Assembly (NCBI GenBank): GCA_004431415.1 | Contig: QPMI01000099.1 | Coordinates: 62,001 to 126,000, forward strand | Source of the DNA: Cyanophora paradoxa CCMP329 | Lineage: Eukaryota > Plantae > Glaucophyta | Length of the DNA stretch: 64,000 nucleotides | Reading direction: 5' to 3' | Shown: in pieces, positions 25,065 to 35,170 of the stretch | Layout: each line of letters starts with the position of its first letter | How positions within the stretch are numbered: position 1 is the stretch's first letter | Translations under genes and position numbers: made by a program | Notes under the pieces: generated by a model | The model's database searches: none | What the model was told of the DNA's origin: nothing | What the model saw: only the letters and a program-made list of their open reading frames with translations

Positions 25065-25823
25065 TCACACACTGATTGTGGTCATTTCTCGTTGGATCCG
25101 AGCCATCTGACCCCTTTTAATTGCTTTTCTCTTCACAAACTTCTTAAAGCCCTTCATATCATCATCAGTTAGTACTGCTCTATCAGTATAGGTCTTGATA
25201 TCATAACCTTGCAGGCTCGCTATGACAGTTTGGTAATTATAACCCCATAGTCTATGCAATTCCTTGTAGGTCTTCTTATCCATTCCACCATTGTACTCAT
25301 CAAAGGCGCAATTGAATTCCTTTTCATTCCCAAGTATATTGAAAAATACAACGAACTCCACATTACGACGAATGGTAGTAGAAATTGAGCATAAACGCTG
25401 AACATTAAATATCACAGAAATTGAATAATGGCGGCCGCTCGTGACCAATTTAGATAACACAGCCGAATTATGCATATCCAAATTGGAACCTATCATGTCA
25501 TCGAGTATGATTACTAAGTTATTTCGTTTCTCATTGTTCTCGATTCGTTTCTTTTGCATACTGATCAATCTCAAAACAATGTTATCATCCCATTCCTCAT
25601 AGATGTTATCTGGATGGGTGATGTCATTGAATTGCCCAGTAAAAGCTGTTGAACTAAATATTACGATCTGATCGATCTTGTCACGAAGCTCGTAAAGTAA
25701 GTATTTTGTAAACATTGTCTTACCTGTATTGGAGCGACCAACATTTAAAATTCTCGTTGGGATTCGAACTGTCTTACTCGGATCGAACTCCGGAATATCA
25801 TCTAAGTTTACTGTGTTATCCAT
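25065..25823 (-). CDS. A32/FtsK-like genome packaging ATPase
   Basis: Walker A GRSNTGKT, Walker B VIILDD, downstream GRHYSISV..Q and IRRN motifs typical of A32-like ATPases; 252 aa. Confidence 0.9.
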   Translation of the reverse strand: MDNTVNLDDIPEFDPSKTVRIPTRILNVGRSNTGKTMFTKYLLYELRDKIDQIVIFSSTAFTGQFNDITHPDNIYEEWDDNIVLRLISMQKKRIENNEKRNNLVIILDDMIGSNLDMHNSAVLSKLVTSGRHYSISVIFNVQRLCSISTTIRRNVEFVVFFNILGNEKEFNCAFDEYNGGMDKKTYKELHRLWGYNYQTVIASLQGYDIKTYTDRAVLTDDDMKGFKKFVKRKAIKRGQMARIQREMTTISV

Positions 25824-25904
25824 TACAGTAATAACATAAAAAACAAAATAAACTGCTCACCTACTTAATTTCTGAGCTTCCTACTCTAACGAAAGAAAAG
25901 AACT

Positions 25905-27131
25905 TTAGAAGTTCGAGACTTTCAGGGTAGAGATGTTGTAGCCATTGAGGACCATAACATTGTGTCGCAGGGCATAGATATCAACCTGAACAGGAGCAGC
26001 ATCAGTGCATCCCGAAACAGTGAGATCCATGTAACTCGAGCTGCTGTTGAAGAAATCCTGGTAACCCATAACCGAGTTCCGAAGCGAATCTTTTCCGGAC
26101 TTGGAAAGAACAATTCCATAAACATTTCCAGACTCGAATCCGTAGGTGGTATTGCCCACAGTAACACCCTTGTAATGAGAGGGAATGTGATTGACAGCAG
26201 AGAGGAAACCGGAAATGGGTTTGTTAGAGATATCAAGGGAGCGATTGTTGTGGAAGATCTGGAACTGATCGATTTTAACATCCGAAACATGACCACAGAA
26301 ATCAGAATGAGTGTAGGTGTTGAGTTTGTTCACCTCTCGAACAGTCATGAGAATCGAATGAACCAGACCGGAAACATTAGCAAGTGTAACCTCGACCGAT
26401 TCACCAGCATCAGCAGTTTTAAGCGCTCGGGTCTTCTTGTGGATGACCTCTGTGATCGGGATGCGAATGCCACCTTGTTCGTTTGCCATCTTTAGGAGTG
26501 TCTCAGCCTCAGCCGAAGCGATGTTTACGAATTGGCAGATCAGGGAGCAATCCGCAAAGGTAACAGATCCACCGGCAGGAACTTGGACAATCGCAGCATC
26601 ACGGAAATCCACCTCAATCGTTGGCATATCCGCCAGCGTACATAATGGAAAGTAAGCATCATCCCAGAAAGCAGCGGGGATTCTAACGATGTATTCCATT
26701 GCTTCATCTGTGCTTTCACGATCTGTCTCTTTGAAGTAACCAAGAGAAGCATACATGCTGCTCATGGTAGCATGATCATTATCAATCAGAGCGTTAACAG
26801 TAATCCAGTCACCAGGGATGATATACTTGAAACCACCATGAACAAAGCGGACCTCATTAATAAAGGAAGAACCACCATTGGGGAGGGTGCAGGCTACACC
26901 ACCACCAGTGGCAATCTTGAAATAGAGCGAAACACCAGCAAGGAGTTGTTTGCGAGGAAGATCGAAGTAAGCGGTATTCTTAAAGCCAAAAGTATTGCCT
27001 CGGGGGCGAACTTGCTCGAGGAATGGTTTGTACTTGGGGTTGGTTCCGATTTGGAGACCAGGGGATAGATAAATTTGATCGGAACCGGGAGTTACGAGGA
27101 GTTCCTTAAGGGTAGTTCCAGTGAGTGCCAT
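25905..27131 (-). CDS. Probable double jelly-roll major capsid protein
   Basis: 408 aa and beta-strand-rich. N-terminal FG..AYFDLPRKQLLAGVSLYF and C-terminal VDIYALRHNVM patterns resemble DJR capsids. It lies between the ATPase and the minor capsid gene. Confidence 0.75.
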   Translation of the reverse strand: MALTGTTLKELLVTPGSDQIYLSPGLQIGTNPKYKPFLEQVRPRGNTFGFKNTAYFDLPRKQLLAGVSLYFKIATGGGVACTLPNGGSSFINEVRFVHGGFKYIIPGDWITVNALIDNDHATMSSMYASLGYFKETDRESTDEAMEYIVRIPAAFWDDAYFPLCTLADMPTIEVDFRDAAIVQVPAGGSVTFADCSLICQFVNIASAEAETLLKMANEQGGIRIPITEVIHKKTRALKTADAGESVEVTLANVSGLVHSILMTVREVNKLNTYTHSDFCGHVSDVKIDQFQIFHNNRSLDISNKPISGFLSAVNHIPSHYKGVTVGNTTYGFESGNVYGIVLSKSGKDSLRNSVMGYQDFFNSSSSYMDLTVSGCTDAAPVQVDIYALRHNVMVLNGYNISTLKVSNF

Positions 27132-27183
27132 CTCTTATGTTTAAAATACCAAAAGAAATTTTTAAAATGCTTTATTAAACAGA

Positions 27184-33747: not shown

Positions 33748-33752
33748 TAAGG

Positions 33753-34811
33753 ATGGACCAGGTTCTGAGTTATACCAAGTATCGACAGAAATTGATTAAA
33801 GAAGGTATCACATTTGATGAGGAAGAACTAAGAAAGCGTTTTAAAAATCAAGAGCTTGAGCAGATCTTTAAGAAGCCCAAAAAGCAAAAGTCTTTCTTGC
33901 GGATCATTGCTCCACCCAATTCCTTTCAGGTTGATGTGATTTATTTCAAAAGCTACAAGACAGCAACACATGGAGTGGATAGGATGCTGGGATTTGTCGA
34001 TATATTGAGTCGGAAAGCATTTGTATACCCTTTCAAGCCAAAGGATTCGAAAATCGATATTTTCAACAGGTTCAAAGTTGAGGCAGGCAAGGTTAGTGCT
34101 ATCTCAGGAGACAATGAGTTCTCTGCTGAGATTTATAGGAAATGGTGTGAGGAAAACAATGTTACACTCTACACTGATGTAGCTAAGAATGACCACATCA
34201 CAGTAGGTGATAAACTTGGTATTATCGATAGGTTCACCAGAACTTTTAAACAATATTTGAGAAAAGCAATAGTTTCGAGTGGGAACCCAAAATGGACTGA
34301 TTATTACAAACAGGTTCTGGCAACTTACAACAACAGTCCACACACTTCCCTAAAGAATGATTCACCCAATGCAGTGTATGGGAATAACGAGAAAGAATCG
34401 TTCATATATTTGCGTGATGCATTGCATAACAAACGTATTAAAGAAGGTAGCCCAACAGTAAAGGAGGGAGATTATGTTCGAGCTGTAACTGAAAAGAAGA
34501 CTTTCGATAAAGAAGGAGCAAGATACAGCAAACAAGTGTATAAAGTAGCAGGCAAGGTAGGTAATCGATTTAGTTTATTGGAAGAGAATGAGGGAGAGAG
34601 TCCAAAGGAAGTAAAACGAAACTTTAAACTGAACGAGTTGCAAAAAGTAGATAAGGCAGCAATTGTTAAGATTCCCACACAGAAGCGTGTGGAGCGAGTG
34701 AAAAAAACAACGAAGGTAAATAGATTAGTAGCAAAAGAGGGTATCAAGCCCAATAGGAGCAAAGTAGTTAGGAAGAGGTATAATTTACGAAGCGGGTTGA
34801 CTAGACGTTAG
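33753..34811 (+). CDS. Retroviral-like (rve) integrase
   Basis: FQVDVIY, VDILSRKAF, ISGDNEF, GIIDRFTRTFK, YNNSPHTSL and GDYVR..FDKEG motifs of Polinton-type integrases. Consistent with the 6-bp TSD. Confidence 0.9.
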   Translation: MDQVLSYTKYRQKLIKEGITFDEEELRKRFKNQELEQIFKKPKKQKSFLRIIAPPNSFQVDVIYFKSYKTATHGVDRMLGFVDILSRKAFVYPFKPKDSKIDIFNRFKVEAGKVSAISGDNEFSAEIYRKWCEENNVTLYTDVAKNDHITVGDKLGIIDRFTRTFKQYLRKAIVSSGNPKWTDYYKQVLATYNNSPHTSLKNDSPNAVYGNNEKESFIYLRDALHNKRIKEGSPTVKEGDYVRAVTEKKTFDKEGARYSKQVYKVAGKVGNRFSLLEENEGESPKEVKRNFKLNELQKVDKAAIVKIPTQKRVERVKKTTKVNRLVAKEGIKPNRSKVVRKRYNLRSGLTRR

Positions 34812-35170
34812 GCTGTGAGGTATGAACCATCTTTCGATTCAACAATTTTCGTGATAGGTCTGAACACTTTGAAAATTTCTTTATAATGGATTCCTTTAAC
34901 ATACCAACCCTTATGAATTGGGTCCCATCTGAGACCATAAGATTTCGCTAATTGGATGTCTTTGAAAGCAACTTGACAAAACATTTTAACATTAATGTAT
35001 TTGATTTCGTCTTCTGTTAGTTTTCGGAATTCTTTGAAGATCTCACTGTTTTCATCTTCAACAAACCATAGCTTCTTTTCAAAATCCCATTTTGCTCCTT
35101 TTGATTTCACGGATTCGCGATCATCATATCGAGAGAAAATGTAAAAGCGTTGTTGTGGCTTGGTTTCCAT
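34808..35170 (-). CDS. Protein with two tandem DUF5710-like domains
   Basis: Repeats YDDRESVKSKGAKWDFEKKLWFV and FKDIQLAKSYGLRWDPIHKGWYV (K..GA.WD...K.W.V signature). Its stop overlaps the integrase stop. Confidence 0.75.
   Translation of the reverse strand: METKPQQRFYIFSRYDDRESVKSKGAKWDFEKKLWFVEDENSEIFKEFRKLTEDEIKYINVKMFCQVAFKDIQLAKSYGLRWDPIHKGWYVKGIHYKEIFKVFRPITKIVESKDGSYLTA

Follow-up and report, generated by a model that had tools for sequence, protein, structure and literature searches.

We analyzed a 64,000-nucleotide (nt) stretch of the genome of Cyanophora paradoxa CCMP329 (contig QPMI01000099.1, positions 62,001 to 126,000), referred to below as the window and numbered from its own first letter, in which an integrated element with genes of the Polinton, or Maverick, type was found. 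The element forms a low-GC island (24 to 35 kb), its G+C content being 0.35-0.46 and that of the flanks 0.60-0.65. It is bounded by terminal inverted repeats (TIRs) whose two arms (24038..24212 and 35248..35422) are 175 nt each and 100% complementary, their outer ends starting with a run of seven A residues. The hexamer GGAGGT stands immediately outside both arms (24032..24037 and 35423..35428), indicating a 6-bp target-site duplication (TSD). The inverted repeat and the flanking hexamers thus place the complete element at 24038-35422, i.e., 11,385 bp inside GC-rich eukaryotic flanks. An earlier note on this DNA had given 25065-35170, which corresponds to the block of open reading frames (ORFs) and not to the whole element. 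Eight intact ORFs are present, and those started at an ATG occupy 82% of the element. The inventory read between the TIRs by the earlier note, namely, an ATPase, a major capsid protein (MCP), a penton, two unknown proteins, a protein-primed DNA polymerase (pPolB), an integrase, and a DUF5710 protein, was confirmed, with the penton only a probable assignment. No second copy of the element or of its proteins was found within the window, no Rfam family or tRNA in 23500-36000, and no exact match to a 21-nt TIR pattern in viral-contig and genome-contig collections.

Public sequencing data gave independent access to the insertion site. Twenty run rows from 18 studies, all of one organism, contain element sequence. 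Contigs of the runs X1, X2, X8, and X12 were mapped on 23700-24500, and contigs of X1, X8, X12, and X15 were mapped on 22500-37000. In the four DNA runs (X1, X2, X8, and X12), the locus is empty, the left flank continuing into the right flank. The joint, as seen in X1, X8, and X12, leads from 24030 to 35422, skipping 11,391 nt with 7 shared letters, and the empty site has a single copy of GGAGGT. This joint confirmed both the ends of the element and the single-copy target. Among the contigs listed at the left junction, none bridges the filled site.

pPolB (1,342 amino acids [aa]; 29719..33747, plus strand) was identified by homologue search and by its DTDS and NSxFGK motifs. Its residues 640-1342 have 5,523 homologues at E ≤ 1e-3, the best at 50-51% and the closest ones at 45-51% identity, and the named proteins among the top homologues are from cnidarians and molluscs. 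Weak Pfam zf and Endonuclease_7 matches were also obtained with pPolB, and PHROGs pointed to endonuclease VII-like fingers. The next ORF encodes a retroviral-type DDE (RVE) integrase of 352 aa (33753..34811, plus strand). Its direct Pfam rve match is weak and below the cut-off (E 0.04-0.2). Comparisons were made with 82 loci that carry pPolB relatives, 3 from IMG/VR (L001-L003) and 79 from metagenomes. BLAST matched the integrase to those of L001-L003 (E 4e-21 to 6e-18), which themselves match rve at 7e-6 to 5e-11. D61, D120, and D159 fall at the catalytic positions; D61 and D120 are invariant in eight aligned sequences, and D159 occupies the Glu position. Integrase homologues found by tblastn adjoin pPolB in 36 of the 82 loci. 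PDB sequence searches with pPolB and the integrase gave nothing significant. On the minus strand, 34808..35170 encodes a 120-aa protein with two DUF5710 stretches (Pfam E 4e-14), which is predicted to be a DNA-binding accessory of this module; tblastn found a DUF5710 homologue in one of the 82 loci, and DUF5710 homologues lie beside pPolB/integrase in L002 and L026. By their homologies and motifs, pPolB and the integrase are of the Polinton/Maverick type, in agreement with the module proposed earlier.

The N-terminal part of pPolB contains two further domains. A terminal protein (TP)-like domain (D1; aa 181-276, 30259..30546, plus strand), with a predicted role in priming, precedes a domain resembling viral OTU-like (vOTU) cysteine proteases (aa 285-408, 30571..30942, plus strand). 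In an alignment of pPolB residues 180-470 with 39 homologues, C305, in a DNKCF motif, and H402, in THYGY, are invariant in 40 of 40 sequences, as are four zinc-finger ligands. The structure model of the TP and vOTU domains is confident, with a predicted local distance difference test score (pLDDT) of 87. A Foldseek search with this model gave nothing at E ≤ 1e-3, and OTU rows appeared at E 0.3-0.43. The model shows an OTU-like fold between the TP-like domain and the exonuclease. Polinton pPolBs are described as having an N-terminal TP domain followed by a vOTU protease, with the catalytic Cys on helix alpha-1 and the His on strand beta-4 (Krupovic et al. 2024, PMC11161782). The domain found here, known from sequence and model, shares with those the position, the OTU fold, and the conserved catalytic Cys and His. 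The element is consequently not protease-free, as its pPolB has an OTU-like cysteine-protease domain. The hypothesis put forward in PMC11161782 is that vOTU detaches the TP from the polymerase; a role in capsid maturation would be pure speculation. As canonical polintons have vOTU plus a separate maturation protease, the presence of vOTU does not refute the absence of an adenain-type protease.

The other half of the gene set relates to the capsid. The A32/FtsK-type genome-packaging ATPase (252 aa; 25065..25823, minus strand) matches Pfam Pox_A32 at E 1e-15 and the terminase large subunit of PHROGs at E 1e-8, with Walker A at aa 29-36 and Walker B at aa 104-109. It has one relative among 1.84 billion representative sequences. 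The neighboring 408-aa ORF (25905..27131, minus strand) matches no Pfam family. An exhaustive HMMER search of the same 1.84 billion representatives returned six matches, the best at E 1.1e-17 and 28% identity. One of them, a jacalin-repeat protein, was judged spurious. The five true relatives are singletons of 430-476 aa with 23-28% identity, one of them from the glaucophyte Cyanophora paradoxa (EukProt). A word-based homologue search found none among 4,096 candidates, a metagenome scan with this protein gave no match, and neither did IMG/VR scans with it and its relatives P0124, P0126, and P0121.

We identified this protein from its predicted structure. An AlphaFold2 (AF2) model built on a six-row alignment (A1) reached a pLDDT of 64.7 and a predicted template modeling score of 0.73. 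In Foldseek searches of PDB, it matched Vp54 of Paramecium bursaria chlorella virus 1 first, at E 1.6e-17, and also the MCPs of Singapore grouper iridovirus (SGIV) and Emiliania huxleyi virus 201 (EhV-201); SGIV MCP chains made up 6 of the 10 top rows (ranks 2-4, 7, 9, and 10). In BFVD, the top match, at E 1.2e-21, was followed by many MCPs of nucleocytoplasmic large DNA viruses (NCLDVs), with a virophage MCP at rank 33 and an adintovirus entry at rank 37. The A1 profile matched a single PDB sequence, that of the EhV-201 MCP, and not significantly (E 0.37). As judged from its model, the 408-aa ORF is a double-jelly-roll (DJR) MCP.

In divergent orientation to the MCP gene, a 295-aa ORF (27184..28071, plus strand) probably encodes the penton, or minor capsid protein (mCP). 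It has no Pfam match and no significant PDB sequence match. Language-model look-alikes, which we take as a lead, include viral clusters with Sputnik V18/19 and DUF5901. Its N-terminal 81 residues align by hhalign with penton-sized ORFs of four pPolB loci, one of which matches DUF5901 (E 0.0028, probability 11%). Two orphan basic proteins without relatives follow, one of 253 aa (pI 9.7; 28108..28869, plus strand) and the other of 85 aa (pI 9.8; 29220..29477, plus strand), which are predicted to be virion core or minor structural proteins. The former, which contains no Cys, has no match in Pfam, PHROGs, or PDB sequences and no usable language-model look-alike. The latter is alone in the approximately 850 bp that separate the 253-aa ORF from pPolB (28870-29718). 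A motif of approximately 24 nt occurs upstream of the 85-aa ORF and of pPolB (29192-29215 and 29694-29717; 19 of 24 positions identical), ending 4 nt and 1 nt before the respective ATG, and it may be a common promoter or leader of these two genes. Between the left TIR and the ATPase gene, approximately 850 bp (24213..25064) contain no credible ORF and no Pfam match; a 40-nt unit is repeated three times at 24577-24728 and a 13-nt unit five or more times at 24737-24853. These repeats might be regulatory or end-binding sites.

We searched the element for an adenain/Ulp1-like maturation protease, whose absence had been proposed from inspection of the ORFs. Its six frames yield 154 stop-to-stop segments of at least 35 aa, 150 of which were scanned against Pfam at E ≤ 0.5 with no match to any peptidase family. 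Of the other four, two are 35 aa long and lie across the MCP gene in other frames, and two come from the right TIR and are mirror images of scanned ones in the left TIR. Pfam being weak on this element, proteases from related loci were used as queries. A 194-aa ORF of L002 has the His...Gln...Cys-Gly signature and matches the CE-clan family ElaD/SseL-like_C at E 2.3e-5, and a motif scan of the 82 loci revealed two further proteases, in L046 and L048. The 306 six-frame segments of at least 20 aa were all searched with the L002 protease by phmmer and with a hidden Markov model (HMM) of all three proteases, filters being off. The best phmmer match was a meaningless segment at E 0.37, and the best HMM match was an out-of-frame segment of 37 aa at E 0.053. 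A scan for the H..D..Q..CG motif found it in no plausible ORF. The 253-aa ORF, a place where the earlier note had considered that a protease might yet be found, cannot be a cysteine protease, since it has no Cys. Within reach of these methods, an adenain/Ulp1-like CE-clan protease is thus absent, although their sensitivity is limited.

The two further proteases are very small for adenain-like enzymes, with 115-137 aa and a His...Gln-Ile-Gln...Cys-Gly signature (L046:4707-5051 and L048:12062-12472); Pfam at E ≤ 1e-3 did not list the latter as a peptidase. Their loci pair pPolB with PF21738 DJR-like MCPs (403-449 aa) and phospholipase (A2) domains. Among 12 larger loci, a recognizable protease was found in 3, within the parts that were fetched. 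Two unrelated domains were also noted in these loci: a Tet/JBP-like 2OG-Fe dioxygenase domain (E 2e-7) adjoining the A32 ATPase in L001:4548-5315, and a VLTF-like intermediate transcription factor of the poxvirus type (PF05718, E 1.8e-20) in the metagenomic pPolB and RVE element L048:3898-5064.

The capsid genes of the element were scarcely represented in the 82 loci. tblastn at E ≤ 1e-2 found no homologue of the ATPase, the MCP, the penton candidate, or the 253-aa and 85-aa proteins there. BLASTP and phmmer searches gave only weak ATPase matches, and the MCP-family HMM matched one 415-aa ORF, in L052 (E 2.2e-5; hhalign probability 13%). A 399-aa ORF of L028, whose layout is like that of the window, is not detectably related to the MCP. 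L001-L003 pair pPolB with MCP-sized ORFs of 631-833 aa that have no detectable similarity to the MCP of the window. The pPolBs of these three loci are 37-51% identical, yet their MCP-sized ORFs are mutually unmatched by BLAST, and the only capsid-module match among them is a weak one of 27% between the penton-sized ORFs of L001 and L002. Lost capsid similarity alone is therefore not proof of a module swap. The comparisons support a capsid module of a different, rare kind from those of the pPolB-relative loci. Of the earlier proposal of a protease-free capsid module of the type found in polinton-like viruses (PLVs), the separate capsid module, with its five MCP relatives, and the lack of an adenain-like protease are supported, but the vOTU cysteine protease inside pPolB had been overlooked.

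The same sequencing runs indicate that the element has moved recently. pPolB-integrase contigs of X1 and X8 differ from the window at 0-7 positions per 0.7-2.3 kb, and those of X12 include one 1.9-kb piece with 14 differences. The outer ends of the TIRs abut at least four other distinct GC-rich flanks. An empty locus together with near-identical element sequence on other flanks argues for recent movement: its position in the genome of this organism varies between samples, and it is likely still mobile. Contigs of X15, a run guessed to be RNA, match stretches of the ATPase, MCP, and pPolB-integrase regions, with contig depths that cannot rank the genes. X15 contigs that bridge the empty site also show gaps of 83 and 78 nt bounded by GT..AG on the plus strand (23899-23983 and 35487-35566), and these gaps are absent in the DNA runs. 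With such gaps on both sides, the insertion would have hit a transcribed host gene, in a short exon. The host ORFs beside it match no Pfam family.

Outside the element, three features of the window were noted. A second, smaller low-GC island at 12000-14000 (GC 0.44-0.47 against approximately 0.58 around it) has no similarity to the element, and its part at 12000-13900 contains no ORF longer than 92 aa. A satellite array of approximately 17.5 kb (45979-63456), with approximately 121 monomers of 144 nt, a higher-order period of approximately 431 nt, and 65-70% matches, explains why composition and skew are flat over the last 18 kb of the window. At 20387-20507, GC-rich host sequence contains a 61-nt unit that is perfectly duplicated in tandem (2.0 copies, 100% matches).

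We compared the element with the known groups that share its genes. Like animal Mavericks/Polintons (adintoviruses; Polintoviricetes), it has TIRs with a 6-bp TSD, an A32 ATPase, a DJR MCP with a weakly supported penton candidate, and an RVE integrase directly downstream of a pPolB that contains TP-like, vOTU, zinc-finger, and His-Me finger domains and is 45-51% identical in the polymerase part. Unlike them, it has no detectable adenain/vUlp1 protease, its MCP has 408 aa, its host is a GC-rich eukaryote with intron-like gaps of approximately 80 nt, and its 11.4 kb compare with a quoted size of 15-20 kb or more (10.64898/2026.06.19.733378, PMC7805220). With the MCP, the mCP candidate, and the A32 ATPase, it has the core set of PLVs (Aquintoviricetes), which are usually without a maturation protease; indeed, most PLV groups are described as lacking one (10.64898/2026.06.19.733378, 10.64898/2026.10.13.758929, 10.64898/2026.07.28.741278).

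A further resemblance is to protist PLVs in the Polinton configuration. Bellas & Sommaruga 2021 (PMC7805220) describe 28 viruses with pPolB, RVE, MCP, and mCP as well as ATPase, distributed over at least eight MCP clusters. Such elements, including cluster VC20 with its Acytostelium and Heterostelium relatives and those of oomycetes, share with ours this gene set, a highly divergent MCP, and the lack of a maturation protease, and they are larger, as described. The earlier suggestion of an undescribed kind of element hence did not hold: the combination has been in print since 2021, and with the Polinton-configured PLVs of that study and of the 2026 preprints, the architecture is real but of an already described kind. 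Our element is a new example and not a new kind. Even its MCP lineage may already be catalogued. The MCPs of the amoebal VC20 elements are reported to be distantly homologous by HHpred to that of SGIV (PMC7805220), and SGIV MCP recurs among the Foldseek matches of our model; VC20 and the other named clusters were compared by description only. The data also suggest that a Maverick-like pPolB and RVE module is paired here with a rare capsid module of PLV size, with a small MCP of NCLDV-like fold. pPolB and DDE-integrase genes are described as often travelling together between capsid classes (10.64898/2026.06.19.733378, 10.64898/2026.10.13.758929).

Altogether, we consider it likely that the element is a complete endogenous virus in the Polinton configuration, with TIRs, TSD, A32 ATPase, DJR MCP, vOTU-bearing pPolB, and RVE integrase, and with no detectable adenain/Ulp1-like protease. 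Given the latter, its capsid would likely form without proteolytic maturation, as is thought for most PLVs. Several points weigh against this interpretation. The MCP model was built on six sequences and has the modest pLDDT given above, and the penton assignment draws on an hhalign probability of 11% and on a language-model lead. For the 295-, 253-, and 85-aa ORFs, the verdict of no protease comes from sequence methods, and Pfam has limited sensitivity here: the element's own pPolB was not recognized as DNA_pol_B_2, and the genuine protease of L002 falls below the Pfam cut-off (24.8 versus 27 bits). Finally, the same organism contains diverged relatives of the capsid half, whose other halves, unseen, could carry a protease.

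If the element is such a virus, its cycle can be outlined. Integration, in which the TIR ends are joined to host DNA and the 6-bp duplication arises, would be carried out by the RVE integrase. For replication of the excised or linear genome, the N-terminal TP-like domain of pPolB would serve as protein primer on the A-rich termini, where the seven-A run might, in our own view, suit a sliding-back start. The vOTU domain would then cut the TP from the polymerase, following the hypothesis of PMC11161782. The MCP and the 295-aa penton candidate would build an icosahedral shell, into which the A32 ATPase would package the linear genome, and the two basic orphans would belong to the core or be minor proteins of the virion. 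As is assumed for most PLVs, maturation would require no proteolytic step.

We asked whether the element might instead derive from a longer master copy that bears the protease, either by internal deletion or as a form dependent on it in trans, to be mobilized or packaged with its help. Diverged sister elements do exist: in the same runs, many contigs are 85-99% identical over the 24.4-29.7 kb half, with a summed depth 3-6 times that of the flanks. Loose ends at 24437, 29391/29437, 30037/30092, and 35242 represent copies that depart from this sequence, and 11.4 kb is below the 14-40 kb quoted for PLV genomes (PMC12220804). However, none of the eight ORFs is disrupted, the TIRs match perfectly, and the variants do not point to a longer ancestor. 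Of these variants, the listing covers 40 of the 656 substitutions, 12 of the 38 indels, and 15 of the 24 joints. All of the listed joints are deletions in other copies (369, 260, 67, 410, and 922 nt), and the listed indels and joints include no insertion of more than 3 nt relative to this copy. A longer master copy, which the earlier note had thought might be found, is thus not indicated. Some sister copies lack 29211-29472, i.e., most of the 85-aa ORF, and others have the 369-nt deletion within 24213-25064 or diverge completely to the left of 24437. Moreover, the diverged copies are under purifying selection. In the ATPase ORF, 20 of the 21 variants listed change the third base of a codon. 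One of the 12 listed indels is in the host flank, eight are in non-coding parts of the element, and the three inside ORFs preserve the frame: the 253-aa ORF gains 3 nt (CAA) at 28111, and in the MCP gene a +1 and a -1 indel are separated by 3 nt. This pattern is typical of copies that are functional and evolving rather than decaying. As protease-less PLVs are moreover described as the rule (10.64898/2026.06.19.733378, 10.64898/2026.07.28.741278, PMC7805220), we consider an origin by deletion or dependence on a master copy unlikely.

Equally unlikely, in our estimation, is a bolder view of the complete Polinton-configuration virus favored here. The element would be the prototype of an undescribed family-level lineage of minimal eukaryotic DJR viruses, with eight genes in 11.4 kb, at or below the quoted lower size limits, active today in an organism kept in culture and moving between loci, with the polymerase OTU as its only protease for TP release and for any processing of the virion. 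If true, this would provide a tractable system in which Polinton-type virions could be observed.

Somewhat less probable still is that the element is a virophage-like hyperparasite, whose expression, and possibly capsid processing, would rely on a co-infecting giant virus and which would thus need no protease of its own. Mavirus-type virophages share with it the pPolB and RVE module, vOTU included, as well as TIRs, nuclear integration, a DJR MCP, and an A32 ATPase (PMC11161782, PMC7805220), and the MCP model is closest to NCLDV-type capsid proteins. The share of element words is 0.27-0.32 in the guessed-RNA rows X15-X20 against 0.00-0.02 in X21-X24, as if only some samples expressed the element, but such values are not evidence of expression. 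Virophages (Virophaviricetes) are defined by their MCP type and a cysteine protease, which they are described as encoding as a class (10.64898/2026.07.28.741278). In contrast, the element has no detectable maturation protease; its MCP has no sequence similarity to the distinct virophage MCP family, with no virophage MCP among its sequence matches and one only at rank 33 in BFVD; and no giant-virus promoter motif or helper was identified here.

That a highly divergent maturation protease hides in the 295-aa ORF, or in the 85-aa ORF or its 112-aa stop-to-stop frame, is very improbable. Pfam cut-offs did miss both pPolB and the L002 protease, proteases of 115-137 aa exist in L046 and L048, and 3 Cys and 5 His are present in the 295-aa ORF. 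Yet with the protease HMM and phmmer, the lowest E was 0.83 for the 295-aa frame and, for the 112-aa frame (in which the catalytic Cys position aligns to a Lys), 0.37. The 295-aa ORF moreover resembles viral penton clusters and aligns N-terminally with penton-sized ORFs, and the 253-aa ORF is devoid of Cys.

The element, which we thus regard as probably a complete virus in the Polinton configuration, is a clean example of a Maverick-like pPolB and RVE module combined with a rare capsid lineage, and it agrees with the frequent transfer of this module between capsid classes reported in the preprints cited above. Polinton/Maverick virions are stated never to have been observed (10.64898/2026.06.19.733378, 10.64898/2026.07.28.741278). 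An intact, compact copy with perfect ends and a TSD, whose locus is empty elsewhere, in a much-sequenced organism, is a practical candidate for studying the formation of Polinton particles. It is also a candidate for determining whether maturation of a DJR capsid can do without an adenain-type protease.

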